64,000 nucleotides of DNA from Barthelona sp. PCE (GCA_040285745.1 JAUFOR010000003.1:62001-126000), one strand, 5' to 3'; shown: positions 1 to 49,077, counted from the stretch's first letter. Program-made: numbers and translations. The notes: a model not told the origin generated them from the letters alone.

Positions 1-734
1 AGAGCGTAATAGAGACGGATGTAAAGGGGATCATGTGAAAGAGCCTCCCACATAGTATCACCTGAGATACGCATAGTAGTCACCATACCACAATTCTGGC
101 ATCTAAGAACCGGCATTGAGAAGTAAAAGATGTTCTGGATAGGAACGTCCTTGGGGATCTTGACCTGTGCCTGCACCATGGCGAGAGATCCGCCAGTGCG
201 AACAGTTTTCCAGTGGCCAAGAGCAAGATAGAATGTGGCCTCTCCGCCTGTGAACTGGAAGTAGTGGCCGGGACATGTGCCTGGAGTGTACTTGGGGGTG
301 AAACTGTAATCACCAGAAAATGCAACATCATAAACAGATTTTCCAAGAGCCTTTGTAGCCTTCTCGAATTCCGAGCCTGTGAGGTCACGAACGTAATCAC
401 TGTATTGCTCCATGCTGTATTGACGAGTAAGACGGGAATCGGTAGAACAAGTCGAGATAATGATTGTCATTGCACCTGACTTTCTTAGTTCCATTTCAGC
501 TCTACGTGATTCTTCGGAGACGGTACCTGAGACCTTGACCTTGAACCAACTACGCTTCTTCTTGAGCGTTTCGATTCTGATGGTACTTGTAGAAATAACC
601 TTATCGTGACGAGTAACAGAGACAATTCTGCGAGAGGTAGGAATCCATGAGCCGGAACAGCCATTTCCGTTGGAAACATGTGCAAATACTTCACTTAGAA
701 GCAAGAAAAAAATCAAACACTGGTATACTTTCAT
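1..734 (-). CDS. Secreted/surface protein of unknown function, 3' end runs off the window (absent from ORF track)
   Basis: Manual translation from ATG at 734 gives MKVYQCLIFFLLLSEVFAHVSNGNGCSGSWIPTSRR... and stays open for 244 codons to the window edge. The N-terminus looks like a cleavable signal peptide (..SEVFA|H). Confidence 0.85.
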   Translation of the reverse strand, partial: MKVYQCLIFFLLLSEVFAHVSNGNGCSGSWIPTSRRIVSVTRHDKVISTSTIRIETLKKKRSWFKVKVSGTVSEESRRAEMELRKSGAMTIIISTCSTDSRLTRQYSMEQYSDYVRDLTGSEFEKATKALGKSVYDVAFSGDYSFTPKYTPGTCPGHYFQFTGGEATFYLALGHWKTVRTGGSLAMVQAQVKIPKDVPIQNIFYFSMPVLRCQNCGMVTTMRISGDTMWEALSHDPLYIRLYYA

Positions 735-7380: not shown

Positions 7381-9636
7381 TTATTGTGTTGAAGCATTGC
7401 TCAATGTTCTCCTACGTTCAATTTCATCATTCTCTTCATTGTACTCTTCGCTAGCATAGAATTCGATATCATCTTCATCTGTCGTCGTCATGTTGGACTC
7501 TCCATCCTCTTCAATGTCGCTCAATTGGGCAATTATATCTTCTTCTTCACTGAGAGGGTTCCGGATCATTGTTTCACTCTCTTCACCCAACTTACTCAAG
7601 TTGCTGCCTACAGAGCCCACGCGAGGAATTTCTTTTTCTTCCTGTTGTGAAATGCGGTCCAGTAAAAGGTTGAGATCTATGCTTGTCTCGTACAGGACAT
7701 GGCGCTTCTTCATGCCAAATTGCAGCAGATTTCGAATGTCAACTTCATGTGATAATGACATCAGTAACTGCTTCTCCGTCTGCAGCAAGCTTTCTCTGAA
7801 CAGGATGCGCACATCAGGTACATTTGTCTTACGGACCTCATTGGCTTCAATAGCGTTTTGGTTTGTATACTGTTCTCCGAGCCACGACACTTTTGATTCA
7901 TGGTCAAATCCGCTGTTAAGGCAACTGTTTCTCGCAATCTCGCACAGATCTGTGGACGAGAGCTTCCAGTACTGTCCAGCAATTGAGAACTCCTCCATCA
8001 GAGGCTCCTCTGTGAAATGGTGCTTCAATGGATCATCAGTCGAAAGCGTAACGTTGAGCCCGTTGCTGAAAAAAGTGGGGAACGGGTTGTCCTTGTACTC
8101 AATCGAGTTGCGATTGTTGCTTACAGGAGACATCGCAATCGGGATTTGACCGAGATAGAAGAGATACTGGAGAACGGGGTTGTTCTTGAGGTTGATGCCG
8201 TGAACAATGCCATGGCACGTCAGGTACGTGCTCGTTAGATGCTCCATTCCCCCACTCTCTCCGGCATGTGGTCTCAGCGCTATTGTGTTCATTCCGCAGT
8301 CATTCCTCAGACCGTTGAGCATGTAAAGGTTCGAATATAAGAAGTATACGTAGTAGCTGAACGGAGGGTCACGATGCGAAGTCCAGTTGCGTGGGGGCGA
8401 GAACTTCTTAAAAAACTGCCTCTCTGGCTTACTCTCATCATCAACCGTGTCAAAAGCAACAACGTGTTGCAGGAACCAGTGGAGGTAAGGGTGCGAAGAA
8501 GGATCGCGCGAGACCTGGAAAAGAGGTTCAAATATGTTGGCGAGATACTGCTCGAAATTTTCAACTACACCAGTTGCCTTATAGTGCGCATACAGACGTG
8601 GTATTTGGATGACCCAGCGCACATTGCGACTGGCAACCTTGTGCTTCACGAACCATCTGGCCAAACGGTCCCACTCGTTGATGTTACTTCCAAAAATGGT
8701 GAGACTCATTTCAGAGTGCTGGTACTTCTCTGATTCTAAGCGTCTCATTACCATCTTGATCATGTCTGCAAAGTACGCGCCCTCGATGAAATTATCAGTT
8801 TTTAAGAAGACTTTACGGAGGATTGACTCATTATTGGTATTAAAGTTGTTGTCCATGGAGTTGAAACGGAGTGTAGTGTGACAGTCAGACTCTATTTCGA
8901 GTGCGTCAAGGCCCATCTCGTACGGAGAGTATCCCATACATGTAAAAATATCTGGAAGAGTATACTTCTCACCTCTTCTATCTACAAACACCGTTCTATC
9001 CTGATCAGACATCAATTTCAATCTAATAAAGTCCAGCAGGAGCATCTTGTTCATCGCAGAGGCAGCATGTACGTGTGTGTCAACCTTACGGACATTATAA
9101 AAGTCACGGTGGCTAACTTCCTTTTGAAGACCCTTCTCGAGTTCCTTGTTCAGCATTTTGTACATACGAAATCTGTATCCAAGAAGATATAGACGGCGGT
9201 AGCAGAAGGCTTTGAGTTTGGCATAGCTAGAGAAATAGTTGAGAGAGTGTAAAATTCTAAAATACTCGTTCATGCTCGGAGCCAATTTGTGCATAGCTTT
9301 TTCTCCGTTTGTTGATGCAAAATAAAACCCATTAGAAACGTTGTAAAGGATCTCTATGTCATCCCTACTCGGCGGGAGATCAGTGATTGCAAATAGAGGA
9401 GGATCATTTGGCTTCTTGTCTGGGTAAAGCTTGCCCTTTTCTGGAGTATAAAGAAATCTCTTTCGCCAACCAACCATCTTAGCAACCAAAGCCGCGTTCT
9501 CTCTTGCAGTTCTGCTCCTAGGTTGATCATTTGGAGTAATTTTAACTTCACTGTGTTGCAATTCTAGTTGTGTGAGTAGAAATTCGTTGCTAGTGAACAA
9601 AGGATCGTCTTGCTGCAACCCATTGGGACTAGTCAT
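7381..9636 (-). CDS. AMPD: AMP deaminase (eukaryotic type)
   Basis: HRDFYNVRKVDTHVHA, LRPHAGE, TLSTDDP, EPLMEEFSIA, DLCEIARNS. Start MTSPNG (9636) preferred. Confidence 0.95.
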   Translation of the reverse strand: MTSPNGLQQDDPLFTSNEFLLTQLELQHSEVKITPNDQPRSRTARENAALVAKMVGWRKRFLYTPEKGKLYPDKKPNDPPLFAITDLPPSRDDIEILYNVSNGFYFASTNGEKAMHKLAPSMNEYFRILHSLNYFSSYAKLKAFCYRRLYLLGYRFRMYKMLNKELEKGLQKEVSHRDFYNVRKVDTHVHAASAMNKMLLLDFIRLKLMSDQDRTVFVDRRGEKYTLPDIFTCMGYSPYEMGLDALEIESDCHTTLRFNSMDNNFNTNNESILRKVFLKTDNFIEGAYFADMIKMVMRRLESEKYQHSEMSLTIFGSNINEWDRLARWFVKHKVASRNVRWVIQIPRLYAHYKATGVVENFEQYLANIFEPLFQVSRDPSSHPYLHWFLQHVVAFDTVDDESKPERQFFKKFSPPRNWTSHRDPPFSYYVYFLYSNLYMLNGLRNDCGMNTIALRPHAGESGGMEHLTSTYLTCHGIVHGINLKNNPVLQYLFYLGQIPIAMSPVSNNRNSIEYKDNPFPTFFSNGLNVTLSTDDPLKHHFTEEPLMEEFSIAGQYWKLSSTDLCEIARNSCLNSGFDHESKVSWLGEQYTNQNAIEANEVRKTNVPDVRILFRESLLQTEKQLLMSLSHEVDIRNLLQFGMKKRHVLYETSIDLNLLLDRISQQEEKEIPRVGSVGSNLSKLGEESETMIRNPLSEEEDIIAQLSDIEEDGESNMTTTDEDDIEFYASEEYNEENDEIERRRTLSNASTQ

Positions 9637-22946: not shown

Positions 22947-23355
22947 TTGAATAGATTTTAAAGAAGGTGTTTGTTAGAATTAGGTTTTTGTGATCTTTGT
23001 GTGTGCGTGTTTATTATCTCATTTTAATACAGTAAACCCATTTGATATATATGTATCGGTTGTGATTGACAACAAGAATCCTTTGTTAAAAGAAATTCAA
23101 AAACTATTTAATTCTATCTAACCACTAGCATAAAATCAATGGAAAGCGGTTCCTATCGATCTAATAGTGTATTAACAGTACCTTTTGTCCTAAAAAAGCT
23201 AATGTTGATAGTTTCAATGTATTATTGTTCATTAAAATGACAAGACCACAATTTAGAGGACTAAAACCAACATATTACGAATATTATTCCCTCAAGCTAA
23301 CTCTGAAATGGAAGTCATAAGTTTCATCATTGTTTTATCATATATACTTTCTATC

Positions 23356-25642: not shown

Positions 25643-27295
25643 ATGAAATTCGTTGGTGTATTACTTTGTCTCCTGATTGTAGCATCCGCTTCAGTCGTTA
25701 CTCTGGACGAGAAGTCCTTTGAAGAAACTATGGCAGCTCAAGAGTTTGCTTTAGTTAAATTCTACGCCCCTTGGTATGTTTTTTTGAACTTATAAGTACG
25801 GTCCTTTCACGTAAATATGTTTAGAGATTGAAATTGCATTTTTTTGAAATTTCTATTCTATGAGAATATTTATTGTGAAACACATTATAAGCACACTGGT
25901 AATTATCTTGAATATCTTACACTTAGGTGCACACACTGCAAAGCTCTCGCTGAGCCATTCACAAAGGCTGCCGAGACTCTTGAATCTTATAAGCACAAGA
26001 TGATCCTTGCTGAAGTCGATTGTGACGATCACGGTGAACTTTGTCAGAAATTTGAGGTCAAGGGCTACCCTACTGTTAAGCTTTTCCGTAATGGCGCTAT
26101 CTTTATGGATTATGAAGGTGGTAGAACTGAGCAAGATATCATTGCTTTCATGGATCGCTTTAACAAGCCTGTTGCTAAGCAGATCAAGAAAGAGGAAATC
26201 GAAACCATTGAGAACCTTCCTTTTACAGTATTTTATCTTAAGGAAGAGTCATTGTTTACCGACATCTCCAATGAAGTCGGACTTAAGATCTCTGAGATGG
26301 ATTTGTACGTTGTTACCATCACTGAAGGTGATGAAAAGGTTGTTGTTCACAAGAACGATGAGGAAGAGCCAATCTCTGAGCTCGTTCTCTCCGAGGACGA
26401 TTCCACCACCACCATCATGGAGTTCATTGGTGCTAACCGTCTTGGTTTAGTCATTGAACTGAACCAGAACACATTCCGTTCCATCTTTGTTCAAGATTCC
26501 CCCCTCATCTTTATGATGTTCCACGATCCAGCAACAGACTCCCTTGATGAGTTCATGGTCGCTTCACGTGCTCTCGCTAAGGAGAAGGGTCGTGGTATTG
26601 CCACATTCACAACAGTTGATGGTGTTATGTTCTCACGTTTCATGGAGAGACTTGGTCTCCCATCCCTCCCTGGTGTCGTCGCCCTTGACATTGGTAAGGA
26701 CAACGTCTTTATTAAGAAGGATGAGGAGCTCCTTCAGTGGATGAATGATGCTCTTGATAACAAACTCGACGCCAATGTTCGTTCCCAAGATGAGCCAGAA
26801 GAGCTTCGTGATGAGAATGGTGTTATCACCGTCGTTGGTACCTCATGGGAGAAGGTTATGGAGGGTGAGTTCCTGGAGAAGACCCGTGTCCTTATGGTTC
26901 ACGCTCCCTGGTGTTCCCACTGTCAGGAATTCAAGCCCATCTACAACAAGGTCGCACAAGACTTTGCTAACGCCGAGCTTCTTGCTGAATTCGAACTTGA
27001 GAAGGATGATATTGTCTTGGCTATGCTCGATGGTGATGGTAACGATATTCCTTCACCTCATGTGCAGATCACCTCATTCCCCACCATTTTTGTTTTCCCT
27101 AAGGGATCTGTTGAGCCCATTGCTTACCCCGAAGATAAGGACCGTACTGAGATCGATGTCATTGAGTATGCTCTTCAAAACCACAAGGGTTCTGAAGACT
27201 GGGATGATGAGGCTTTCCACAGAGCACTTCACAAGACTCTCCCTGCCATGTTCACCGAGGAGTCTGCCGAGGTTGAGGTTGAGGATCTTGCTTAA
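25643..27295 (+). CDS. PDI: Protein disulfide isomerase (a-b-b'-a'); exons 25643-25773 and 25927-27295
   Basis: The spliced N-terminus MKFVGVLLCLLIVASA|SVVTLDEKSF...LVKFYAPW|CTHCK restores the signal peptide and first active site. Second site HAPWCSHC; cis-Pro loops GYPT and SFPT. Confidence 0.92.
25774..25926 (+). other. Spliceosomal intron, 153 nt, phase 2 within the Trp codon of APWC
   Basis: TG|GTATGT...ATCTTACACTTAG|G TGC; removal rebuilds YAPWCTHC. Confidence 0.92.
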
Positions 27296-30700: not shown

Positions 30701-33700
30701 GTATCTACTCACTGCCAAGATCACCAGCATTGTTACCGCTACAACAGTTGCTAGTCGACCCACAACTTATTCACTCAATATTGAGTCTGCTGAGGTTGGT
30801 CGTACTTTTACTGTTTATGCTCAAGATAGTGCAATTGCAGAAGATGAAAAAACTCTATATTATGGCAACACAATTCTCGCTGGTGCTAAATTCCACGGTG
30901 AAAAAATGAAGTTTATCCTTCACACAGATTTGTCAAGAAAGCACATTAAAATTGCTTTCAAGTTGGAAGAAATTATTGTTGATGAAAATGTTAACATCAA
31001 CACTCAAGGTGAAGAACGTAGTGTTGGAAACAAACCTGTCATCTTTAAGTACGAAATTAAGAGCGACATCTATGTTGACTACGATTTTAATATCACTTCT
31101 AAGGGTGCGACAGGTCTTGATCTTGCTAATGACATTGTTATGTATGTTGATTACAACACATTGTACTTTGAGGATGACTCAGTCCATATTGCCAACAGCG
31201 ATGAGTTCACATTCAACCCAGTTGCCGACTACAGAACTCAGTATATGTACATTATGCTTGTTCCAGCATCCAGTTATGGTGCTATCACAAACGAAAGTGT
31301 TACTGCCACAGTTCTTCTCACTTTGGATGAGACTATTCAGTCAATGAATGAGCGTTCTGATAACACTGTCCTAACTATCGCTGATTCAAGCAAGGTATAC
31401 TGGATCAGATACACTATGCCTTCCTCTCTGACGGGTGACAACGCCCAACCCTTCAACATGCATATCAAGACTGTTAACACAGGTGCTAGGTTTGATTTCT
31501 ACGCTATCTTTAGCGAGAACCGTAAGTTTGATCCTACATCGAACGTTGCTGTTATTTTATCCGATAACGATGAAAATGTTTTTGATTTGTATGCTATTGA
31601 TTATGCACAGCTTCATGTTCAGGTGCCTGCTGAATACTACATCAAGGTAAGCTCTTTCACAAGCTGGGTTAGTACAGCAACTGTTTCTGTCGAACCTATT
31701 CCTCTCGTGAGCACCACTGCGCTTTCCCTTGATACACTTAACGCTGTTGCTAATGAGTATACTTACTCAGCTGATCGTGTGTTCAAGTACACTGGTAACT
31801 TCTCTGACTGCACTCACTTGTTCATCCACACAACTGAAACATTTACTGTTTCATCAATGTTGACTGGTGGAGTCACTGCATCTGCTATCACAACAACATC
31901 AGTTGATCGTATGTTTAAGGTTAGCGAGTTTGATGATACAGATACTGATGGTTTGGTGTTCTCTCGCTCATTTGCTGCTTCAGAGACTGCTTCCATCTAT
32001 TTTTCAAAGGTCAATCAGTTAGAGAAAACTCTCACTGCGGTTACTACAACCAATACCCATACACTTGACATTACTACAGGTAGTCTTTTCACAGATTTTG
32101 TGCATTTCACAGTTGAATGGCCTGCTGGTGTTATCCCCTCAACATTGACTTTCGAAACAAACGGAAAGACCTACTATGTATATCAATCTGAGCAATACGC
32201 TTCATCATCCAATATGGTACCACCCTCATGCGGTATTGGCTGTTATACTGTTTCTGATGGTTCGGATATTGAGTTCGATATGTCTGCATTGGTAACCGGT
32301 GATCCTTATATTGCTGGAAAGATGGAGTTCTACCTCGTTCCAAGCTGGAATTATGCGAACAAGGACGATACTGTCAACATGAAGGCAACCTTGGTTACTG
32401 TTGATGATGAGGTTGTTACTACAACTGAGAGCCAGTCAAGCACTACAGCTACTGCTGCATACCGCTACGTTAAGTGGGAATTCCCGAGTAGTATTGGTGC
32501 GAATGGTGCTGTATACATTGATTTTGCTAATGTTACTCTGACTTGTGATACTGATAAGATTGCTTCTCGCCTCATTTCAACATGGACAGACTCTTATTCC
32601 ACTTGGATGCGTTACCTGTATTACAACCCTTCATTGAACAAGGATACTCTTTCTGGTTCATACTGTTATTACAGAGGTTCGGTTGGTGAGTACGAGTCAA
32701 AGGTTATCAAGGTTGTTCCGATCAGCAACGTTGATGAGTTGGAACTGACATTGGATGATACAACCCCTGTTCGTATTGTTAAACCCACACTTGGCAAATT
32801 CGATGATATGAATCAGTACGTTAAGGCATCTGTTGTCAATTACGTTTCTACTAACAAAGACGATGGAGATATGAACGTTGTTCCTGCTCAATTCAATAGC
32901 GGTGTTTATGCTGTTGGATCACAGATTCACTTCTCATCAAACAGCATGGAAGCCAATATTGATCCTATTTCTCATGAAGACTTTTCCATTCTTATTTTCA
33001 GCACAGAGATGCCAACAACTTCAGATTTTTCTGTTCGCACTGAACTGAAGAACTTTACAAAGCTTTCCGGTATGAAACAGTTCGTTTGTAATTCATTGGA
33101 AATGGCTGATGATGAATGTAAGACTTACTGTAAGAGTTACCGTAACAAGATATACAGTAATACAGTATTCACAGAACCCAACGGTTATGTTGAACCTTCT
33201 GGTTTCCGTACTTTTTACATTAAACCTAACACTAACGATACCGCATGTCACATTGAGGTAAAGAGAACAAATGGAAATAACTTTGATGTGAAGGGACGAA
33301 TTACTGATATGAATGATTTGCACTTCTCACCTGCAGTTAACGATTGGTTACGTGTTTCACTCATTACTGTTAATCCTGAAGCTGAGATTTATGGCGCAGC
33401 ACCCATGCATTGGCGTACCATTTGTGATGGTAGTAACATTCAGCCAAAGGCTGACACATGCAAGTGTCATGTTGATGATTGTGAGGTTAAAATTACTGTC
33501 CCTCAACGCATTGGTTATCTCCAGGAGTTGAAGATGGAATCTGACAGCACGATTTCGTTCACAAAGTATCACCCTCAGTCTGGTCATACTATCAATATTG
33601 GTAACGGCGATTCTATTTATGAAGAACTTTACACTAATCATTTCAAGAGTACCGTTATGCCTATTTACGGCACTGTTCCTTACGGTGAGTCGGTTATGTG

Positions 33701-36377
33701 GAGTCACAAACCCAGCAAGAAGATTCATATGTTGGAAACCAACAAGGTGCACAAGGGTTCACTTTATCTGAAAAAACGTTTTGCATTCAAGAAGCCCAAG
33801 AATAACAAACAAACCATTGCTGAGATTATTGTTAAAAACAAGAATCCCTCAAACACATTCAATATATTTTACGGTTGTGACGCTCCTGAATATGGTGATT
33901 CTCAAGTTGCCTGCAGTCAGTCACAGACTGTAACTTACGGTAAAGTAGCTGTCAGCCGTTATCTGGTCCAGAGCGAAGAGAGTACTTTGTTCCGTTTGGT
34001 AGGTTCTGGTGTATTTGTAGATTACGAAATGGAGATTAGAACCATCACGATTGATGACTTTAAGGAGTTAGATTATGGTAAGGAACACTGTTTCACTCCA
34101 TCCTTGAAGAGTAAGAACTTTAAGATTAAACTACCCGAGAGAGGCAGTTCATTGTCGTGGGTGACTGATCGCAATGATGCTATTTATTATGCTCAATCAA
34201 CTTTCATGCGTGACGGTTCATTGGGAAGAATGGACGGTGAACTTCCATATGTTTATGGTTCTGCCAGTGGTTCTCAGCTTCAAGTCGGTAATAATCCGAA
34301 TACATGGTGGTTATTCTCCGCCTATTCATACTATCATGATGGTATTGGTCAGTTCTGCATTCGTACTGAGCTTAAGAGACCCGATTACGGTGATGTTCGT
34401 AGCTATGGTCAGGCCAAGACAGTAACTATTGTTCCCCTGGCCAATACTGGTGTCGAGTTCTTTACCACGAATGAGCGCTCTGTTAGTGCAACTCATAATA
34501 TCTTTGATGGCACTTCCAGGAAGTTCATCAAGGTTGAGATCCCTGATGAGGCAGTTGGTTTCTTCCCCACAAAGGTTATTGGTCTCAAGATGTACGGTAC
34601 TTTTGATCCGGATGATATCTTTGCTGTTGACGCCAATGGTGTAAGATATGATCCCATTGCATCTGTACACTCCACTAACGATTATGATAGTGGAAAACGT
34701 CATCTTTACACGAACTTTACCGCGGGCTCTAATCTTTTCTTGAAGATCAACAGTTATGTCAACGAGAAGATGTCAATTGGTGTATTCCTTGTTGATATCA
34801 GTGATATTGCAGTTGATGTGGCGGATCCAACTTCCCCCATTAAGCCGCACAACCGTAATGCGAAGATCAATATCTTTAGATTAGCGCTTGACACCGAAAA
34901 GATTAAGATGTACGCAACCACCAAGCTTTATGTTGGTGGTTCTTCTTATATTTATGCATATGATGACGTTGGTAATGACATTGATAGTGGCAGTTCAAGT
35001 TCCTATACCATGGATCCAAAACAGTTCAAGTACCATAATCCGAGTAAGCTGATTGTTGTTGTCAGATATCCTGAGGACAATGAGCAAGAGGCAGTCCAAA
35101 GTCAAGCTCTTCAACTGACTTACGCTGTTACTACACCTATCCAGATTACTGAAGGAACCACTACATACACCGTTACTGAAGATAATATTACCCCTTTGAA
35201 CAAGATTCGTATGACTTTTGATAAAAGTATTCTTCTTAATGATGGAGATAAAATTGTTATCGTTGAGAAAAATATTTATGATTCTGTTTCTGATTCTTAT
35301 GTGTCATGTTCTGTTTATTCATCAGACAGTTGGACAACTGAGATTTCGAACTCTGGACCTATGATGAAAGGTGTCTCGAACTTTAAGTATGATTCAACTC
35401 CGATATTTGAAATTTCTTCATGTGGTGTTTCTGATATGACAAAGCTCACCATTCGTGCTATCATTTCAACAGCTGAAGAATTAACTTCAACCCCTGTTAC
35501 AGTCACCAGAGACACGATGGTCAAGATTTTTTATATTAATAAGAAACGTGCTACAAGTATTGAGCTCACTGATATTGTTCTTGATTACGATGAAACTTTC
35601 ATTGGTTCAAACTCGATTGCATTATATGGTGTCCCAACCTCCGATATGGAGAAGAGCTGGGATCTTTACAACATTGAAGAGTATAGTAGTATTGACTTTG
35701 ATGATTTCATGTGGACCAAGGCTGCTGGAGAATACAATATTCCTCCATCCCTTTCCTCCTTCGTTCTTATGACTGAGGGAACTGATTTCCAGAATGATCG
35801 CTTATGGGTCATCGTAACTGTTCATTCGTCACTTCATTCATCGACTTCATTCAAGATTAAAGCTAAAGAACTGAAGCCTTCGTATAAGATTGAATCATGT
35901 GATCGCTCCATTATTGATTTCAATGACGGTTTTGGTGCTGAACTAAACGTTGAAGCAAAGAAATACAAGGACGCTCGTTTCTCATTCCTTAATAATGGTA
36001 TTACCACATTTGTTGATAAGAAAACGATTGAATCCTATAATCAATTGATCTGTCAGCTTTATGTTCCTTATTTCAAGGATGGTCTCATTGCTCAACCTGA
36101 GAGTAAGGATGCTTCATCTATTTACAGCAACGCTAGAGAATTTGTTTCAAACAGCGAACTGTATGATGATTATGGTTACGAAGAACCAGAAGAAGCTCCC
36201 CAGTTCCAGTCTATTGTCGATCCTGATACCTCTTCAAAGGATGAAGGATTTTGGACCGCTGGTACAATATTCTTGATTATCATTCTTGCCATTATTGTTG
36301 GAGCAGTCTTTGTTTGGTGGTTTGTAATTCGTCCTAAAAAGGGAGGAATGAAGACTAAGCAAATTATGCCTAATTAA
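27741..36377 (+). CDS. Giant type-I membrane (cell-surface) protein, about 2,878 aa
   Basis: N-terminal signal peptide (MLKIIFLTFLLLLLSNA), long T/S/Y-rich beta-strand ectodomain, one C-terminal TM helix (TIFLIIILAIIVGAVFVWWFVI) and a short basic tail. Confidence 0.9.
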   Translation: MNMLKIIFLTFLLLLLSNAAPTALNTVSLDYFNIKLDFDADQWGYVKFTSNASAACTHYVTFTAQDAPFFNQETVTEYTVTAGTTQYLWIPSYWTSQSSFNMTGYASHATEGTTCGAEYDFITGNILTENESIQQAWKYSFVTGYTEMTAHHSIEYEFSIRSESFGSIPLVAYEYTDEGFKNPQSFTATNNTVYTKTFFASDYLIGTPKIVFFIDRTSHSTSNMDSFEVENVVVRKFTQGRFVDLAVGVKQTVSIASDEVIMFKIPQTEVPKGSYMNIRINGVAVTSLANVHLSRRGSLTYDASSGMDNVWTDGNWFNKNIYKKEVVDYAHPFSGVMYLRVETAARGTFNIQFSVINGIDEPPALKPGKTVNLDIKKDTYKHFTFEPKDLMEHEFYFIRILSADSGMDINVYIAEGENLAPRNDESDHTSIFDPTVKSLSFTTSSIDDPIININPCHFDRTKKYYFSVSDDDTNSNSGYVISFELIHVPRIDLSSGVSTVLPRMRSGTQIPFVLDPTKMNPSDFYKISYALSGNWKYYTSKERNCGASTTFYDQYHSSEFLPACGMSKSKLYGVVTLTSIAEQPTIGLYHFTNNIRKVEFGKKISLENLPDKIHRTVYFELDIPKNFDELRDKIFVTKWRRATAHSNSISVTAGDLCVGSSSYTFTTNVEHIHSFRDDLAYIRKDGKYFVKVYYPSNVDLDDDVSVEFKLKGTKKIVLDENKSLTIRANEAMNYEIHVPFKRSETYKSTYDTIHFVGHNNMNENFYYMETNKDGKQFWNGLDYRSLSLFKFSANGYTVKSFPPTSSYNDRVMKYYYFSQTGFVYNRDIEIIRKTYTPIKITDTVQHIKKPYVAGGQYHYAYLEPMTISEEQFVRVNFIAADSASSITSYWSHNGYYDNNRYAGSDTYDYMNVAADDLSVEFTKKELEELRYVRLFSDGEISISYEIVTKFADVIPIPSSGYSTLTAVYDYSTKLEFETNSTLDDGKMYLLTAKITSIVTATTVASRPTTYSLNIESAEVGRTFTVYAQDSAIAEDEKTLYYGNTILAGAKFHGEKMKFILHTDLSRKHIKIAFKLEEIIVDENVNINTQGEERSVGNKPVIFKYEIKSDIYVDYDFNITSKGATGLDLANDIVMYVDYNTLYFEDDSVHIANSDEFTFNPVADYRTQYMYIMLVPASSYGAITNESVTATVLLTLDETIQSMNERSDNTVLTIADSSKVYWIRYTMPSSLTGDNAQPFNMHIKTVNTGARFDFYAIFSENRKFDPTSNVAVILSDNDENVFDLYAIDYAQLHVQVPAEYYIKVSSFTSWVSTATVSVEPIPLVSTTALSLDTLNAVANEYTYSADRVFKYTGNFSDCTHLFIHTTETFTVSSMLTGGVTASAITTTSVDRMFKVSEFDDTDTDGLVFSRSFAASETASIYFSKVNQLEKTLTAVTTTNTHTLDITTGSLFTDFVHFTVEWPAGVIPSTLTFETNGKTYYVYQSEQYASSSNMVPPSCGIGCYTVSDGSDIEFDMSALVTGDPYIAGKMEFYLVPSWNYANKDDTVNMKATLVTVDDEVVTTTESQSSTTATAAYRYVKWEFPSSIGANGAVYIDFANVTLTCDTDKIASRLISTWTDSYSTWMRYLYYNPSLNKDTLSGSYCYYRGSVGEYESKVIKVVPISNVDELELTLDDTTPVRIVKPTLGKFDDMNQYVKASVVNYVSTNKDDGDMNVVPAQFNSGVYAVGSQIHFSSNSMEANIDPISHEDFSILIFSTEMPTTSDFSVRTELKNFTKLSGMKQFVCNSLEMADDECKTYCKSYRNKIYSNTVFTEPNGYVEPSGFRTFYIKPNTNDTACHIEVKRTNGNNFDVKGRITDMNDLHFSPAVNDWLRVSLITVNPEAEIYGAAPMHWRTICDGSNIQPKADTCKCHVDDCEVKITVPQRIGYLQELKMESDSTISFTKYHPQSGHTINIGNGDSIYEELYTNHFKSTVMPIYGTVPYGESVMWSHKPSKKIHMLETNKVHKGSLYLKKRFAFKKPKNNKQTIAEIIVKNKNPSNTFNIFYGCDAPEYGDSQVACSQSQTVTYGKVAVSRYLVQSEESTLFRLVGSGVFVDYEMEIRTITIDDFKELDYGKEHCFTPSLKSKNFKIKLPERGSSLSWVTDRNDAIYYAQSTFMRDGSLGRMDGELPYVYGSASGSQLQVGNNPNTWWLFSAYSYYHDGIGQFCIRTELKRPDYGDVRSYGQAKTVTIVPLANTGVEFFTTNERSVSATHNIFDGTSRKFIKVEIPDEAVGFFPTKVIGLKMYGTFDPDDIFAVDANGVRYDPIASVHSTNDYDSGKRHLYTNFTAGSNLFLKINSYVNEKMSIGVFLVDISDIAVDVADPTSPIKPHNRNAKINIFRLALDTEKIKMYATTKLYVGGSSYIYAYDDVGNDIDSGSSSSYTMDPKQFKYHNPSKLIVVVRYPEDNEQEAVQSQALQLTYAVTTPIQITEGTTTYTVTEDNITPLNKIRMTFDKSILLNDGDKIVIVEKNIYDSVSDSYVSCSVYSSDSWTTEISNSGPMMKGVSNFKYDSTPIFEISSCGVSDMTKLTIRAIISTAEELTSTPVTVTRDTMVKIFYINKKRATSIELTDIVLDYDETFIGSNSIALYGVPTSDMEKSWDLYNIEEYSSIDFDDFMWTKAAGEYNIPPSLSSFVLMTEGTDFQNDRLWVIVTVHSSLHSSTSFKIKAKELKPSYKIESCDRSIIDFNDGFGAELNVEAKKYKDARFSFLNNGITTFVDKKTIESYNQLICQLYVPYFKDGLIAQPESKDASSIYSNAREFVSNSELYDDYGYEEPEEAPQFQSIVDPDTSSKDEGFWTAGTIFLIIILAIIVGAVFVWWFVIRPKKGGMKTKQIMPN

Positions 36378-40270: not shown

Positions 40271-43200
40271 ATGTCAACTACTTCTTCTCGCTACAATCAT
40301 GCGAAATTTCAGGAGATCCGTAAGCCTCCTGTCGTGAAGATTAACAATGATTCAGGGGAAAAAGTCAGCATTAAGATCAATAACGTTGATTATGAGGTTC
40401 CAAAGGAAGCCACCATCATGGAAGCCGCTGCCATTAACGATATTAACATTTCACGTTTATGTTATATGCCCAGATTACCTCCAAGCGGACACTGTCGAGC
40501 CTGTGTTGTTGAGGTTGAAGGCATTGATGATTTGCCCTGTTCATGTGCAACTCAAGTTTATGAGGGCATGAATATTCAAACAAACACTCCCAAGGTTCGC
40601 AGAGCTGCCGCTGCTGCTCTTCACAAGATCCAGTCTTCCCAGCGTCACGCTGCTGAATCCGTTAACACTGCAAACTCTGAGTTTGAGCGTGTTTTACTCA
40701 ACCAGGATCTTTCATGTGTTGACCACAACGACGCTATTCAGATTGACTCCGCCAAGTGTATCAACTGTTCTCGTTGTGTCCGTTCATGTTCTGCTATCCA
40801 GAATTTGGGCATCCTTAAGATGACTGAGATTCAAGATAATATTGGCCCCCGTTCCGTTGTTACCGTTAACAACCCTGATCTGTACCTTTCTGAGAGTTCT
40901 TGTATCGCATGTGGTCAATGTACTACCGTATGCCCCACTGCTGCCATTACTGAAGTCGATGACATTGAGCGCTTTTACGCTGCCCGTGCCGCTGGTAAGG
41001 TTTGTGTCGTCCAGACCGCTCCTTCCGTTCGTGTCTGTGTTGGTGAGGAAGCTGGTATGGAAGCTGGTCTCGTTACTACTGGCCAGATGGTTTCCGCCCT
41101 TCGTCAGCTTGGTTTCACATACTGTTTCGATACTAACTATTCAGCTGATCTTACCATCATGGAAGAGGGTACCGAACTTATTCAGCGTGTCACCGAGAAC
41201 ATTCTCGAGCCTACACCTGATGCCCGTCCTCTCCCTATGTTTACCTCATGCTGTCCTGCTTGGGTTAACTACGTTGAGAAGTATCGCCCTGATCTCATCC
41301 CCAACCTTTCTTCTTGTAAGTCACCCATGTCTATGCTTTCAGCTATCCTTAAGACTCATTTTGCTGAGAAGCTTGGCAAGAAGCCTGAAGACATCTACGT
41401 CGTTGCTATTATGCCTTGTACTGCCAAAAAGCAAGAGTGCATTCGTGAGCAACTTGGTCGTGATGGTTATCTTGACACCGATCTTGTTCTTACCACTCGT
41501 GAAATGGGTAAGATGATTCGTGACAACAACATTGATTTTAAGAACCTCCCCGAGGAGAACTTCGACGAGGCTTTCGCCGAATCTTCTGGTGCCGGTGCCA
41601 TTTTCGGTGCTTCTGGTGGTGTTATGGAGGCTGCTCTTCGTACCGCTTACGAGGTACTCACCCAAGACAAGCTCGAGAAGGTTGAGTTTGATGCCGTCCG
41701 TGGTTTCCATGGTGTGCGTGAAGTTACTATCCCTGTTCCCATCAAGCACAATGGTCAAACCATTAATGCTGAGGTCTGCGTTGCCATCTGTGGTGGTATC
41801 AAGGCTGCTCAGGAACTTGTGAAGGGTAACATCTCCAAGTATCATTTCATCGAGGTTATGGCCTGTCCTTCCGGTTGTATCTCCGGTGGTGGACAGTCAC
41901 TCGCTCAGGATGCTGATGTTTACGAGAAGCGTCGCAGTGCTATCTATCGCATTGATGATGATCTCAGTGCTGTTCGTCGTTCTCACGAGAATGTCACACT
42001 CATGAAGCTTTACAAAGACTGGTTGGGTGAGCCCAACGGTCACAAGGCTCACCATCTTCTTCACACACACTATCACGATCACACTGCTGAATGCAAGGAT
42101 CGTGTCAAGATTGAGATTGACGACTCAGATGTCTCTGATGGTTTCCTCCTTGTTTATGCCACACAGACTGGTAACACACGTGATCTTGCCACTGCTATGG
42201 CTCGTAAGCTTGCCTGCGGTGCTAAGGTTGATCTTAAGGCTGCTGATGATATCCACGCCATGGAAATGAAAAAATACCGTAACATTGTCCTTGGTACATG
42301 TACATTTGGTATGGGTGAGATCCCTGCTATGGGTAAGGCTTTCTTCTCACAACTCAAGGATCTCCCTGAAGGATTCCTTGAAGGCCACAACGTTGCCATC
42401 TTTGGTATTGGTTCTACTGCTTATGGTGGTCAGTTCAACAAGGCTGGTAAGGACTTTGAAGATGCTTTCGTCAAGACTGGCTGTACTTTCGTCGTAGATC
42501 GCTGTATCGCCGATGAAAAGATCGGTTACGATACATTTATCAATCCTTGGACTGATCAACTCATGGAGAAGTTCGGTATTGAAGAGGCTGTGCCCGTCGC
42601 TCCTCCGGAGCCTCGTTATCGCATCACTGTTGGTCTCGAGCAAGGTGTTCACGGACCTCCTGCTGGTTACACTTACGTCAAGATGACCAAGAACGAGCGT
42701 ATCACCCCCGATGATTATGATGTCGATGTCCGTCTCGTTTCATTCTCTCTCAAGGATGGTGAAGATTACAACACTGGTCTCAACTACCAGTCATCCTACC
42801 ATCTCGCTATCCACCCTGCCAACCCCCGTGATTGGGTTAAGGATTTCATGACAAAGTGCTACCCCACTCTTGATCCTGAAATGATTATTGTCGTCACCCC
42901 TGTTGGTTCCAACCCCGTTATTCCTGGTTTGGATAAGGGTATCTCCATCACAGAGCTCTTCACTAGATATCTCGATATCTATGATCTCGCTAAGCGTGAT
43001 TTCTTCAAGGCTTTGGCTCCTTTCGCCAAGTCTGCTTCTACTCGTCGTCGTCTCCTTCATCTTGGTTCCAAGGAAGGTGCCGAAGAGCTTGCTGAATTGA
43101 AGAAGAATTCTGGTTACACATATGCTGATGCTATTACCGAATTTGCTGATGCGCGTCCCCCTCTCGCATGGTTGGTTGATGTTATTCCTCAAATTAAGCC

Positions 43201-43885
43201 CCGTCTTTACTCTATTGCTTCCTCCAACAAGTACACTTGTGAAGGCGAGACCAAGCTCGATCTTGAGCTTGTTTTCGGTGTCGTTACATACGAAACCAAG
43301 TCCGGTAAGACTTGCTTCGGTCGTACTGGTGCTTACATTGCTGATGTCGACCCCACTAAGGAAGATGTTTGGGTACCAGTCACTATCCACGAATCTCCTT
43401 ATACTCCTCCGGAGCTTGAGCGTCCTGTTATCTGTCTTTCAGTCGGTACAGGTATTGCTCCTAACCGTTCCGTTATTCAGGATCGTTCCGCCGAGGTTGC
43501 CAAGCACGGTATTGACAATGTCGCTAAGGTATTACTCTATCATGGTTGCAGATATTCCAAGAAGGATCACGTCTGTGCTGACTTCCTCAAGAAGTGTGAG
43601 GATGAGGGTTTCCTGATTGCTCACTACGCCTTCTCCCGTGATGATCCCAGCCGTCGTGTCTATCTCCCTGACGTTATCAAGGAGAACGCCGATGATTGTT
43701 TCAAGTTCCTCTATCAAGAGAAGGCAAAGGTTGTCTACTGTGGTGGTACCCGTATGGTTCCTGGCATTGTTAATGCTTTCAAGGAAGTTATTATGGATAA
43801 GGGCGGTCTCAGTGAGGCTGAAGCACAAAAGTGGCTCGATGATTATTCTGCTGAAGAAGAGAACTGGGTCTTTGAATCTTTCTAA
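40271..43885 (+). CDS. hydA: [FeFe]-hydrogenase fused to flavodoxin and FAD/NAD(P)H FNR-like domains (HydA-CysJ/CPR-like fusion)
   Basis: 2Fe-2S (CYMPRLPPSGHCRAC..C), two 4Fe-4S (CINCSRCVRSC, CIACGQCTTVC), H-cluster motifs TSCCPAW, MPCTAKKQE and EVMACPSGCISGGGQ; flavodoxin YATQTGNT/TFGMG; FNR RLYSIAS, GTGIAP, YCG. Confidence 0.95.
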   Translation: MSTTSSRYNHAKFQEIRKPPVVKINNDSGEKVSIKINNVDYEVPKEATIMEAAAINDINISRLCYMPRLPPSGHCRACVVEVEGIDDLPCSCATQVYEGMNIQTNTPKVRRAAAAALHKIQSSQRHAAESVNTANSEFERVLLNQDLSCVDHNDAIQIDSAKCINCSRCVRSCSAIQNLGILKMTEIQDNIGPRSVVTVNNPDLYLSESSCIACGQCTTVCPTAAITEVDDIERFYAARAAGKVCVVQTAPSVRVCVGEEAGMEAGLVTTGQMVSALRQLGFTYCFDTNYSADLTIMEEGTELIQRVTENILEPTPDARPLPMFTSCCPAWVNYVEKYRPDLIPNLSSCKSPMSMLSAILKTHFAEKLGKKPEDIYVVAIMPCTAKKQECIREQLGRDGYLDTDLVLTTREMGKMIRDNNIDFKNLPEENFDEAFAESSGAGAIFGASGGVMEAALRTAYEVLTQDKLEKVEFDAVRGFHGVREVTIPVPIKHNGQTINAEVCVAICGGIKAAQELVKGNISKYHFIEVMACPSGCISGGGQSLAQDADVYEKRRSAIYRIDDDLSAVRRSHENVTLMKLYKDWLGEPNGHKAHHLLHTHYHDHTAECKDRVKIEIDDSDVSDGFLLVYATQTGNTRDLATAMARKLACGAKVDLKAADDIHAMEMKKYRNIVLGTCTFGMGEIPAMGKAFFSQLKDLPEGFLEGHNVAIFGIGSTAYGGQFNKAGKDFEDAFVKTGCTFVVDRCIADEKIGYDTFINPWTDQLMEKFGIEEAVPVAPPEPRYRITVGLEQGVHGPPAGYTYVKMTKNERITPDDYDVDVRLVSFSLKDGEDYNTGLNYQSSYHLAIHPANPRDWVKDFMTKCYPTLDPEMIIVVTPVGSNPVIPGLDKGISITELFTRYLDIYDLAKRDFFKALAPFAKSASTRRRLLHLGSKEGAEELAELKKNSGYTYADAITEFADARPPLAWLVDVIPQIKPRLYSIASSNKYTCEGETKLDLELVFGVVTYETKSGKTCFGRTGAYIADVDPTKEDVWVPVTIHESPYTPPELERPVICLSVGTGIAPNRSVIQDRSAEVAKHGIDNVAKVLLYHGCRYSKKDHVCADFLKKCEDEGFLIAHYAFSRDDPSRRVYLPDVIKENADDCFKFLYQEKAKVVYCGGTRMVPGIVNAFKEVIMDKGGLSEAEAQKWLDDYSAEEENWVFESF

Positions 43886-47181: not shown

Positions 47182-49077
47182 TTAAATTTGGAACTCGTCA
47201 TTTTGTAACTTAACCATTGCTTTCTGAATATCACCAAAATACTCACGAGCAATCTGATGACGACGTAGCTTCAATGTAGGTGTAACCAAACCTTCAGCAA
47301 TAGTAAAAGCCTTAACACGAATAACACGACGAGGGAGCCAGAAGGAAGGATAACGTAACTCACGACCCTTTGCGTGGACCTTTGTCAACAATTCCGTATC
47401 ATCCTCAGGCGTATTATCGTTGGGGACAATGAGAACAACAGGATAACGTACAGTTGAATCGCCATAAATCATCCTCTGCTCAGTAAAAGCATCGAACAAT
47501 TCTTCAATCTTTGTTGAGGGACAATATTCGCCTTGTGCCAACTTGAAGATGTGCTTCTTACGTCCAACAATCTGGACAAAGTGGCTTTCATCGTTGAGGT
47601 TATACTCTGCAATATCACCTGTCAATAACCAACCATCTGGACCTGTCTCACCAACAACTGAGGGACCGCGAATGCAAATCTCACCGCGAATAATACCGTT
47701 CTCCTCATCAAATGTGTGCTGAGTTTCTAGAGACTCGACAATCTTACTCTCAACCATGTAACCACCAATACCAATGTCTGTAGTCGTCTGGTCAGCGAGC
47801 GGGGATGCGTAGATACCTGCGCACGTCTCAGAGAGACCATAACCCATGGAGACCTTTGTTCCCAGAACGCAACGCAGGAAGTTAGCACAGTCGCAGTTGA
47901 GTGCAGCGCCACCAATCATCATGACTCGGAGCTGTCCACCGAACTTCGCTCGAATACTACCGACACCGAGATCCAATGGGTCCTCTCCTTCAAGGAGACG
48001 ACGGTGCAGACGACCATAGATAAAACCAAAGATCATACGGCCAATACAGTTGAGATCGCGAACACCTGTTCTGATTTTCTCTTCAAAACGCTCCATGACA
48101 CGGGGGACGCCCTCGAGAAGAGTGGGCTCTGCAGACATTAGATCATCGCTAAGTCCATTTAGATCTCCTGACCAGAACATGACGCGACCACCCATCAACA
48201 AGATGAGGTTAAGACACTGCATACCAATAACGTGTGCGAGTGGGAGGTAGCTCAGTGCAGTTGGTCTACCGAGCTCGGTGTGACGAAGACCATCAGGGTG
48301 CATGTGAACTGCACCAATAACTGCAGCATGATAGAGAGCGTCCTGACCGACTGGAATGATCTTTGGTGTTCCCGTTGTTCCGCTGGAGAACATCTCGAGA
48401 ATGACAGCGTTAACAGGTAATTCAGTCAAATCTTCAACATTAAGTGTGAAATTCTCAAAAGCCTCGGGACTAAAATCCATGATCTCAGATTCAGTTGGGG
48501 ACAATACTGTTTTAATATAGTAATGACGGAACGCCTTGAATTCGTCAAGGATATCAGGTGCCTCCTCAAATAAGGGTGAATCCTTCTCGACGAAAACAGC
48601 AAAGGGTTGTACCTCAGCAAGGATCTCAGCGACAAAGGGCTTGAAGATCGAAGTGTAGACAGGGACCATGATGTATCCGTACAAACAGCACATCATGTAA
48701 ATGATGAGGTAACTAACACTGTTACCACTGAAAACCAACATACGTGATCCAATTTCAGCACCTTCATCTTGCAAGCGCTTACCCAGAAGAAGAGCACGGT
48801 TCTTTAACTCGGTCATCGTTAAATAAACCGGTTCCGCACCTGGAGAAGGACGCTCACCAGCAATAGAAACATCAGGGTATTGTTTGAAAATGTATCGGAG
48901 CATTTCATTAATAGTTTTGAGTGCGTCGAACTCTGGAACTCCACCGTTGGCAGTGTTAATTGGTAAAATATACTCTTTAGGCAAAACAGTATCTTCAGGT
49001 TGAACAGGGGTTGTTTCAGTGACATTAGGCTGTTCCTCTTCGGATTCCATACGAACAATAACTTCTTGTTCAGACAT
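47182..49077 (-). CDS. Long-chain fatty acyl-CoA synthetase (ANL adenylating family)
   Basis: FSSGTTGTPK, SYLPLAH, GYGLSE, GWLLTGD, GRKKHIFKLAQGEY, GLVTPTLKLRR. Confidence 0.9.
   Translation of the reverse strand: MSEQEVIVRMESEEEQPNVTETTPVQPEDTVLPKEYILPINTANGGVPEFDALKTINEMLRYIFKQYPDVSIAGERPSPGAEPVYLTMTELKNRALLLGKRLQDEGAEIGSRMLVFSGNSVSYLIIYMMCCLYGYIMVPVYTSIFKPFVAEILAEVQPFAVFVEKDSPLFEEAPDILDEFKAFRHYYIKTVLSPTESEIMDFSPEAFENFTLNVEDLTELPVNAVILEMFSSGTTGTPKIIPVGQDALYHAAVIGAVHMHPDGLRHTELGRPTALSYLPLAHVIGMQCLNLILLMGGRVMFWSGDLNGLSDDLMSAEPTLLEGVPRVMERFEEKIRTGVRDLNCIGRMIFGFIYGRLHRRLLEGEDPLDLGVGSIRAKFGGQLRVMMIGGAALNCDCANFLRCVLGTKVSMGYGLSETCAGIYASPLADQTTTDIGIGGYMVESKIVESLETQHTFDEENGIIRGEICIRGPSVVGETGPDGWLLTGDIAEYNLNDESHFVQIVGRKKHIFKLAQGEYCPSTKIEELFDAFTEQRMIYGDSTVRYPVVLIVPNDNTPEDDTELLTKVHAKGRELRYPSFWLPRRVIRVKAFTIAEGLVTPTLKLRRHQIAREYFGDIQKAMVKLQNDEFQI

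Follow-up and report, generated by a model that had tools for sequence, protein, structure and literature searches.

A predicted [FeFe]-hydrogenase fused to a diflavin reductase in Barthelona sp. PCE

Fusions of an [FeFe]-hydrogenase (HydA) to a CysJ-like diflavin reductase have been described previously (PMC4989108; available part of PMC10703272), and supplementary file 2 of PMC11316075, in its available part, catalogues this architecture for the barthelonids and skoliomonads, the clade closest to the gene reported here. How anaerobic protists without respiration balance NAD(P)H is a matter of continuing argument, and several metabolic maps draw on fused hydrogenases (PMC10579272, and PMC4989108, PMC10703272 and PMC11316075 in their available text). 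The nucleotide is given as NAD(P)H in the available text of PMC10703272 and as NADH in PMC10579272, where the CysJ pocket of the Pelomyxa enzyme is interpreted as a binding site for NADH. The only expressed family member found, TVAG_136330 of Trichomonas, was tested solely with a nitric oxide synthase (NOS) kit according to the available text of PMC9404748. A search of open-access literature found no measured substrates for fused hydrogenases, no H2 or pyridine-nucleotide assay for any family member and no printed statement that these enzymes lack the FS4C cluster.

The fusion gene and its relatives

The window (the whole 64-kb stretch of DNA analysed) contains on its plus strand, at 40271..43885, a single unbroken open reading frame (ORF) of 1204 amino acids with an ATG start and, in the standard code, a TAA stop (Table 1). 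The gene is intact and without introns, and in-frame TGA and TAA codons lie five and four codons upstream of the ATG. Pfam domains run from a [2Fe-2S] domain and two [4Fe-4S] sites through the H-cluster domain and a small-subunit-like tail to the flavodoxin, FAD and NAD(P) modules. The original prediction, of one ORF with HydA plus diflavin architecture of an already known kind, therefore held, and judged by its sequence the gene is a member of the HydA-CysJ fusion family of anaerobic eukaryotes. Read in the standard code, the window yields compact ORFs without overlap. Genetic code table 6 (TAA/TAG = Gln) was rejected because neighbouring ORFs would overlap and the TAA stop of the fusion gene would be read through. 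Bacterial contamination and recent transfer were ruled out by the eukaryotic genes nearby (importin-11-like, TAP42 and DEAH helicase among others) and by a codon preference matching that of other window genes.

Table 1. Positions of the fusion gene and its features in the window
Feature	Position	Strand	Residues	Basis
HydA-flavodoxin-FNR (HydA-CysJ type) fusion gene, TAA stop included	40271..43885	+	1204 aa	Full-length alignment to fused relatives
N-terminal extension (MSTTSSRY...)	40271..40360	+	1-30	Precedes start of bacterial HydA alignment, residue 31
[2Fe-2S] domain (FS2)	40358..40588	+	30-106	Pfam Fer2_4; C64, C75, C78, C92, columns nearly invariant
FS4C-domain equivalent, without His/Cys ligands	40589..40732	+	107-154	Alignment
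Two [4Fe-4S] sites (FS4A/FS4B)	40733..40957	+	about 162-226	Pfam Fer4 dicluster / Fer4_7
H-cluster domain	41000..41890	+	244-540	Pfam Fe_hyd_lg_C, E 2e-86
Small-subunit-like C-terminal HydA tail	41915..42079	+	549-603	Pfam Fe_hyd_SSU
Hydrogenase-flavodoxin linker	42080..42142	+	604-624	No Pfam match; model pLDDT <50 at 608-613
Flavodoxin (FMN) domain	42149..42520	+	627-750	Pfam Flavodoxin_1; loops YATQTGNT, TCTFGMGE, FGIGSTAY
FAD-binding and connecting domain	42677..43330	+	803-1020	Pfam FAD_binding_1; RLYSIASS (R-x-Y-S)
NAD(P)-binding domain	43439..43765	+	1057-1165	Pfam NAD_binding_1; GTGIAP, R1094, C1157
Predicted 2'-phosphate site	43625-43669	+	S1122/R1123/R1129/Y1131	Residue alignment to rat CPR
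C-terminal ENWVFESF, candidate FAD-stacking aromatic	43859..43882	+	F1204	Alignment column

The closest relatives are two complete single Trinity transcripts of Barthelona sp. PAP020 (EukProt EP00792 P005020 and P005019, here P0002 and P0003), with 48 and 46% identity; identity is below 50% to every public representative. Fusions of skoliomonads, Carpediemonas and Chilomastix are 38-40% identical to the window protein and, like those of PAP020, have its full-length domain order. All these fusions also share the 30-residue N-terminal extension, the missing FS4C, an E-S-[FY] end and an SR site, which reads SR...KK-VY in them, whereas the window protein has R1128/R1129 instead of K-K. Separate phylogenies of the HydA and diflavin halves, as had been proposed with the original prediction, were congruent and placed the window protein in the fused clade both times. 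Both quick LG+G4 trees recovered (window,(P0002,P0003)) with (P0004,P0005), at a starred support of 98 each. In the hydrogenase tree, 16 of 17 fused rows formed one starred clade (95) that included this five-row set; in the diflavin tree, the fused rows made up one side of a weakly supported branch (79).

Codon usage was compared among 27 ORFs of at least 200 amino acids, two of 29 having been left out (3..734, which is open-ended, and 7490..8149, an antisense ORF within the AMP deaminase gene). The fusion gene had an ENC of 36.8, matched solely by a PDI-like ORF at 26000-27295 (36.7), and the other 25 ORFs lay at 42.2-58.6, which bears out the strong codon bias noted at the outset. Codon preference was alike in the hydrogenase and diflavin halves (r 0.88) and in the fusion gene and the PDI-like ORF (r 0.86), and was shared with other biased ORFs. 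The congruent trees of the two halves, their like codon preference and the single transcripts of the closest relatives all speak for one fused gene. The biased codon usage suggests that the gene is probably highly expressed. For a catalogued barthelonid, the available supplementary files of PMC11316075 include its one fused HydA in the highly-expressed table, with an FPKM of 856.

The N-terminal extension has a net charge of +2, contains no acidic residue before position 15 and is modelled by AlphaFold as disordered (pLDDT 34-37). Its length and M-S-x5-R-[YF] pattern are common to both Barthelona paralogues. One barthelonid HydA, not further specified, carries a predicted targeting signal according to the available text of PMC11316075.

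The hydrogenase half and the lost FS4C ligands

The H-cluster motifs are defined as TSCCPxW (L1), MPCxxKxxE (L2) and ExMACxxGCxxGGGQ (L3). All three are intact in the window protein, as FTSCCPAW (ligand positions C327/C328), MPCTAKKQE (C383/K386/E389) and EVMACPSGCISGGGQ (C532/C536), which ruled out a Narf/Nar1-like non-catalytic protein. The FS4A and FS4B ligand sets (C163/166/169/173 and C211/214/217/221) fall in invariant columns of the family alignment. Inspection of motifs and ligands, together with Pfam, agrees with the predicted three H-cluster motifs, one 2Fe-2S and two 4Fe-4S sites. Beside the FS2 ligand C92 the window protein has an extra cysteine, C90, unlike its relatives in PAP020, skoliomonads, Carpediemonas and Chilomastix. 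On the NCBIfam model FeFe_hydrog_A (TIGR02512) the protein scored 470.6 bits, above the curated cutoff of 405.95, and residues 31-602 matched HydA1 of HydABC (E 1e-134) and CpI of Clostridium pasteurianum (E 1e-116). Foldseek comparison of the AlphaFold model (pLDDT 83, pTM 0.56) with 8a6t_A and CpI gave E values of 1e-55 to 1e-50 and TM-scores of 0.84-0.86 by target length.

Residues E299, E302, R306, C327 and S347, the counterparts of the CpI proton-path residues E279, E282, R286, C299 and S319, are kept and are invariant or nearly so in the family alignment. They were mapped by the offset from structural-alignment coordinates plus an 8-residue insert, with CpI residue names from PDB titles. 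H-cluster ligands and proton path are all kept although mean column identity in the family is only ~38%, which argues for selection on catalysis, and the protein is predicted to be a catalytically competent single-chain [FeFe]-hydrogenase as part of the explanation that we consider probable. This conservation speaks against a protein whose H-cluster is never completed and which would act purely as an Fe-S/flavin electron-transfer protein, handing NADPH electrons to other acceptors, for instance proteins that detoxify O2 or further small redox proteins. Such a role would suit a lineage without HydEFG: HydE/F/G maturases were not detected in barthelonids and skoliomonads according to the available text of PMC11316075, none of the 26 other ORFs of the window is a maturase gene, and CPR-type FMN domains serve many acceptors (available part of PMC6397501). 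However, Giardia and Entamoeba, which lack maturases, are reported to make active hydrogenase (available part of PMC11216029), and we regard an unfinished H-cluster as highly unlikely.

The original prediction had also stated that the His-ligated FS4C motif is absent (RHAAES), and residue alignment to HydA1 of 7q4v confirmed it: the reference H-x3-C-x2-C-x5-C faces a gap, A, S and S in the window protein, so the ligand set is missing. The set was found in none of the 29 fused-family members in which the region is present and in all four non-fused references, and in this alignment FS4C loss is family-wide among fused hydrogenases. The segment is modelled by AlphaFold as two helices (pLDDT 52-70). 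FS4C is named the probable ferredoxin-facing cluster of CpI in the available text of PMC6288185. Since FS2, a peripheral cluster, is retained, contact with ferredoxin could still occur.

The best solved matches of the hydrogenase half are HydA subunits of bifurcating HydABC and, of the NCBIfam models, that of group A6 fits best, as would be expected of an electron-confurcating hydrogenase that, like bacterial HydABC, jointly requires reduced ferredoxin and NAD(P)H. Yet the A6 cutoff was missed (649.7 against 765 bits), FS4C is missing and the C-terminal thioredoxin-like 2Fe-2S domain PF01257, present in non-fused relatives, is absent; moreover, bifurcation is not known from any diflavin reductase. 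The Pelomyxa authors discussed confurcation but, for want of the extra cluster, held it to be less likely (PMC10579272), and for the window protein it appears very improbable indeed.

The diflavin half and the predicted NADPH site

The flavodoxin had been placed from about 42140, which is correct and corresponds to residue 624. The FMN, FAD (RLYSIAS), GTGIAP and YCGG motifs are intact, including the catalytic Cys of YCG. The CysJ equivalog cutoff was missed by far (TIGR01931; 161.8 bits against 668.15), so "CysJ" is a nickname without orthology and the protein is CysJ-like only.

Residues AFSRDDPSRRVY aligned with AFSREQ-AHKVY of rat NADPH-cytochrome P450 reductase (CPR; chain 1amo_A, whose residue numbers are the chain index plus 63), pairing S1122 with S596, R1123 with R597, R1129 with K602, Y1131 with Y604 and R1094 with R567. 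In CPR, S596 and Y604 are among the residues that hold the 2'-phosphate. This alignment upheld the predicted CPR-type SR..K.Y 2'-phosphate residues, and the chain indeed ends in an aromatic residue (...FESF). The roles of Arg597, Lys602 and Trp677 in CPR are given in the available part of PMC12472590. F, Y or W stands at the F1204 column in 29 of 36 family members, and F1204, before which the HMMER alignment stops, may be the equivalent of W677. Across the 36 members, the 2'-phosphate site is SR in 18, SH in 9 and other in 9; by this alignment, the NADPH signature divides the fused-hydrogenase family into SR and SH forms.

All 60 PDB matches listed for residues 777-1204 are NADPH enzymes: CPR, P450 BM3-type, NOS, methionine synthase reductase, SiR-FP and FNR. 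The NOS chains among the PDB matches recall the claim that Trichomonas TVAG_136330 is a nitric oxide synthase, active in a Griess-type NOS kit after expression in insect cells (available text of PMC9404748). NOS matches of the window protein are, however, confined to the reductase part (residues 618-1194), its N-terminal half is a complete hydrogenase, and Pfam found no NOS haem oxygenase domain (PF02898) in the 1204 residues. This domain content contradicts NOS identity, and a synthase function is scarcely credible; the available text of PMC9404748 contains no hydrogenase assay.

Proposed electron transfer and comparison with known systems

We consider it probable that the protein is a single-chain hydrogenase whose redox partner is not ferredoxin but the diflavin reductase at its own C-terminus, and the best reading of its sequence is NADP(H)-linked, ferredoxin-independent H2 turnover. 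NADPH would pass a hydride to FAD, from which single electrons would go to FMN. The flavodoxin domain would swing on two flexible linkers toward the F-domain, where FS2 or FS4B would take electrons from FMN, followed by FS4A and the H-cluster, which would reduce protons to H2 in an overall reversible reaction. From the AlphaFold model (pTM 0.56), no contact between FMN and the Fe-S clusters can be read with confidence.

NADPH-driven H2 formation is uphill under standard conditions. By the Nernst relation, with NADPH at about -340 to -370 mV, it would be favourable only below ~0.3-3 kPa H2, and above this the enzyme would form NADPH from H2. The downhill direction is that of an H2-uptake, NADP+-reducing hydrogenase supplying NADPH, with electrons running from Fe-S through FMN and FAD to NADP+ as in pyruvate:NADP+ oxidoreductase (PNO), and the diflavin half has its closest relatives outside the hydrogenases in PNO-type C-termini, which work in this direction. 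Cytosolic H2 uptake has reportedly been proposed in Trichomonas, to go by the title of Smutna 2022. Direction is not readable from sequence; relatives are described as fermenters that shed electrons as H2 (available text of PMC11316075), and we consider uptake as the main role unlikely. The main direction is taken to be H2 evolution for a fermenting protist beside H2 consumers. The analysis thereby establishes an intact gene with its domains, cofactor and nucleotide motifs, family placement and codon bias, and from these the enzyme's activity, preferred nucleotide, direction, abundance and cellular location are inferred.

A bolder version, that a barthelonid-type metamonad has in this protein its main, highly expressed hydrogenase and that it is the first example of a separate enzyme class, NADPH-specific, without FS4C, non-bifurcating, matured without HydEFG and targeted to the mitochondrion-related organelle by its M-S-x5-R-[YF] extension, seems to us decidedly unlikely. 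If true, it would, with PFO-flavodoxin fusions, link pyruvate to H2 through NADPH without ferredoxin, and the SR versus SH split would mark a switched nucleotide preference. Family-wide FS4C loss and the SR/SH split make the choice of partner and the preferred nucleotide accessible to tests, and an active enzyme would be one more [FeFe]-hydrogenase made without HydEFG. The window copy is a good experimental candidate, being intact and intron-free, with all cofactor motifs, a clean NADPH signature and codon usage that suggests abundance.

The long hydrogenases of Trichomonas and Tritrichomonas (for example P0012 and TVAG_136330) share with the window protein the 2Fe-2S, two 4Fe-4S, H-domain, flavodoxin and FAD/NAD modules, the lack of FS4C and an SR...K-x-Y site. 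They are ~34% identical to it, ~100 residues shorter and without the N-terminal extension; in place of GTGxAP they have a degraded G-C/F-G-V-AP, and NAD_binding_1 is missing from their precomputed Pfam hits. CpI and HydA of HydABC (1feh, 4xdc, 7q4v, 8a6t) share fold and sequence over residues 31-602, with FS2, FS4A, FS4B, H-cluster and proton path in common. Compared with them, the window protein has lost the FS4C ligands, gained a 600-residue diflavin module and carries an 8-residue insert before L1 that is common to algal HydA; the partner of CpI is free ferredoxin (available text of PMC6288185). CPR, SiR-FP (CysJ) and the PNO C-terminus share the FMN/FAD/NADPH module order, 2'-phosphate residues and terminal aromatic, whereas the window protein is 20-30% identical to diflavin reductases, has no membrane anchor and would find its acceptor within its own chain. 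Group A6, HydABC and Moorella NADP+-reducing hydrogenases likewise link H2 to pyridine nucleotides (available text of PMC6288185), but these multimeric bacterial enzymes carry FMN in a NuoF-type subunit and have additional Fe-S subunits where the window protein has a one-chain CPR-type FAD/FMN pair.

Gene, domain content and predicted fold

The hydrogenase ORF consists of 1204 codons with an ATG start and a TAA stop, and an in-frame TGA and TAA lie immediately 5' of it, which excludes a longer reading. The standard code yielded 29 ORFs of at least 200 aa in the window, compact and with few overlaps; the table 6 code was rejected, since the ORFs collide with one another under it. Pfam detected seven domain types in the window protein, the hydrogenase modules first and the diflavin modules after. 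The original prediction had described the ORF and its motifs accurately, as every motif it named was found.

Features of the window protein and of the window
Feature	Position	Strand	Observation
Fer2_4	residues 30-106		Pfam
4Fe-4S dicluster	residues 162-226		Pfam
Fe_hyd_lg_C	residues 244-540		Pfam
Insert NILEPTPD before L1	residues about 310-317 (window about 41198-41221)		8 residues; missing from bacterial HydA; gap-free alignment to Chlamydomonas HydA1
Fe_hyd_SSU	residues 549-603		Pfam
Flavodoxin_1	residues 627-750		Pfam
FAD_binding_1	residues 803-1020		Pfam
NAD_binding_1	residues 1057-1165		Pfam
Pyridine nucleotide-disulphide oxidoreductase	13049-14824	+	591 aa; about 140 extra C-terminal residues past the dimerisation domain
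2057-aa ORF	14895-21068	+	zero Pfam matches
Dihydrolipoamide dehydrogenase-like ORF	23308-24765	+	16-residue hydrophobic stretch, then second Met directly ahead of GGGPGG FAD motif
Protein disulfide isomerase (PDI)-like ORF	26000-27295	+	two thioredoxin domains and OST3/OST6-like region
2878-aa ORF	27741-36377	+	no Pfam match; ENC 46.4; third positions 46% T
Hydrogenase ORF	40271-43885	+	
AMP-binding enzyme	47182-49077	-	acyl- or acetyl-CoA synthetase type; moderate bias, ENC 44.2

NCBIfam placed the window protein in '[FeFe] hydrogenase, group A' (470.6, curated cutoff 405.95); the scores for group A6 (649.7, cutoff 765) and CysJ (161.8, cutoff 668.15) did not reach their cutoffs. A search against solved structures matched residues 31-602 to HydA1 of HydABC complexes (E 2e-134) and to CpI (E 1e-116), and residues 618-1194 to NOS reductase, P450 BM3-type reductases and CPR. 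An AlphaFold model built from the family alignment (26 rows) had a mean pLDDT of 83 and a pTM of 0.56, and Foldseek with this model retrieved the same two structure sets, the hydrogenases at TM-scores of 0.84-0.86 (target length). Only two segments, the N-terminal extension and the linker (model residues 608-613), had a pLDDT below 50.

The N-terminal extension of 30 residues is weakly basic (+2) and disordered in the model (pLDDT 34-37), and its length and M-S-x5-R-[YF] pattern are common to the window protein and the two Barthelona paralogues. The relatives P0004, P0124 and P0005 start with shorter extensions; parabasalid members lack one altogether. The N-termini of two further relatives, P0006 and P0076, are Arg-rich and lack acidic residues, resembling classical mitochondrial presequences, from which the window protein differs.

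Cluster ligands and nucleotide-site residues

The absence of the FS4C motif, as originally predicted, was borne out by the alignment, in which H-x3-C-x2-C-x5-C of A. woodii HydA1 faces gap/A/S/S in the window protein. The ligand set is kept in all four non-fused reference proteins of the alignment and, in a motif table of 36 family members, in none of the 29 in which the region is present. The equivalent, cluster-less segment had a pLDDT of 52-70 in the model. The proton path is represented by E299, E302, R306, C327 and S347, the counterparts of CpI E279, E282, R286, C299 and S319 (CpI residue names from PDB titles). The 8-residue insert before L1 is common to the window protein, P0002-P0005 and P0017.

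The CPR-type NADPH residues proposed earlier could be aligned with rat CPR (1amo_A; residue number is chain index + 63): S1122, R1123, R1129 and Y1131 with S596, R597, K602 and Y604, and R1094 with R567. A review on CPR assigns Arg597 and Lys602 to binding of the 2'-AMP moiety of NADPH and Trp677 to stacking against FAD (PMC12472590). The last residue is F1204, the expected aromatic C-terminus, and would be equivalent to CPR W677 as placed by the family alignment only; F, Y or W ends 29 of the 36 members in the motif table. The 2'-phosphate position reads S-R in 18 of the 36, S-H in nine and otherwise in nine, and 13 members, the window protein among them, retain S-R...[KR]-x-[YF] in its entirety. 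The nine S-H members, P0007 for example, lack K-x-Y; they are Paratrimastix-type proteins together with a single paralogue from TZLM3-RCL and another from TZLM1-RC. In some skoliomonad genomes each type is represented once, and in the S-H paralogues P0130 and P0142 the L3 motifs are altered too.

Relatives, codon usage and neighbouring genes

A word-index search recovered 230 proteins at E <= 1e-3 from 7995 scored candidates, ranking 16 full-length fused proteins first, then non-fused bacterial and algal hydrogenases, and then PNO-type proteins, which match in the diflavin half only. An exhaustive search of 1.84 billion representatives returned 19113 matches at E <= 1e-3; among the best 150 of these, at least 19 had one stretch of at least 900 query residues across both halves, and the top identity was 50%. 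The relatives include two complete transcripts of Barthelona sp. PAP020 (48 and 46% identity), proteins of Eukaryota sp. GEM-RC1, TZLM3-RCL and TZLM1-RC, one of Carpediemonas membranifera annotated 'Iron-only hydrogenase CysJ-fused', and proteins of Paratrimastix, Chilomastix and Tritrichomonas. These relatives point to a metamonad close to the barthelonids as the most likely source of the window. The 4122-aa P0123 is one predicted protein with seven H-domains, three flavodoxin domains and a single FAD domain, and it therefore probably represents tandem genes merged into one. In P0152 (2962 aa, Eukaryota sp. TZLM3-RCL) the fusion sits at the C-terminal end, after an unrelated N-terminal part of 1790 residues.

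The hydrogenase and diflavin halves gave agreeing trees, both from quick LG+G4 runs limited to sequences of at least 662 residues. The window protein and the PAP020 paralogues P0002/P0003 grouped with P0004/P0005 in both (98, starred). The diflavin-half tree joined the window protein with P0002/P0003 (99, starred), and in the hydrogenase-half tree their order was unresolved inside the five-row set. One starred clade (95) of the latter tree held 16 of the 17 fused rows, the odd one being a long-branched Chromera protein without the flavodoxin part.

Codon bias was as strong as anticipated: the hydrogenase ORF had an ENC of 36.8, matched only by the PDI-like ORF (36.7), and the other 25 of 27 ORFs ranged from 42.2 to 58.6 (of the 29, one open-ended ORF and one antisense inside another gene were dropped). 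Its preferred codons agree with those of the PDI-like (r 0.86), 2878-aa (r 0.75) and AMP-binding (r 0.55) ORFs, and its hydrogenase and diflavin halves agree with each other (r 0.88). This shared preference fits a single long-resident gene under translational selection, and it fits neither a recent transfer of the gene nor a chimeric assembly.

The upstream flank of the hydrogenase gene measures 526 bp; on the downstream side a convergent ORF lies 72 bp away. Pfam matches were found in 14 of the 26 other window ORFs (5/12 and 9/14 in two scans), all of them ordinary eukaryotic genes, and the scan of these 26 detected no maturase, ferredoxin or NuoE/F. The 2878-aa ORF may encode a giant and abundant protein of no recognised kind. 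The dihydrolipoamide dehydrogenase-like ORF is possibly the glycine-cleavage L protein; its true start and targeting are ambiguous because of the hydrophobic stretch before the second Met.

Proposed electron path and comparison with known systems

In CpI, the H-cluster and FS4A are 9 A apart, FS4A and FS4B are 10 A apart, and FS4B forks to FS2 and to FS4C, the probable exit to ferredoxin (PMC6288185). Unlike CpI, the window protein lacks the FS4C exit but has a tethered FMN domain, and the simplest path would run through FMN: electrons would pass from NADPH to FAD and FMN inside the diflavin half, from FMN to FS2 or FS4B, and then reach the H-cluster via FS4A. For an NADPH potential of about -340 to -370 mV, taken from the same source (PMC6288185), the Nernst relation sets a turning point at about 0.3-3 kPa H2, under which H2 would be evolved and over which NADP+ would be reduced. 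We infer the acceptor cluster of FMN, intra-chain versus cross-dimer transfer, nucleotide preference, in vivo direction and location.

The fused architecture is described, in passages of two sources, from Trichomonas, Pygsuia, Stygiella, Pelomyxa, Trimastix and Paratrimastix (PMC4989108, PMC10703272), and 'HoxU + FeFe hydrogenase + Flavodoxin + CysJ' is recorded in three of three skoliomonads and one barthelonid (PMC11316075, supplementary file 2). Other passages of the latter report a predicted targeting signal on one barthelonid HydA and no HydE/F/G detected in the barthelonid/skoliomonad clade (PMC11316075). TVAG_136330, the one family member for which expression work was found, was produced in insect cells with a NOS kit readout and, in the part of the source describing it, without a hydrogenase assay (PMC9404748). 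The function proposed in part of one source is H2 formation dependent on NAD(P)H (PMC10703272); a passage of another names NADH only and adds that 'experimental evidence is required' (PMC10579272). The putative H2/NADP(H) function of the original prediction coincides with what had been proposed in print, sharpened by the NADPH residues. The window protein is a well-preserved further member of an already catalogued fusion family, to which the present analysis adds the table of FS4C-ligand and 2'-phosphate-site motifs across 36 members.
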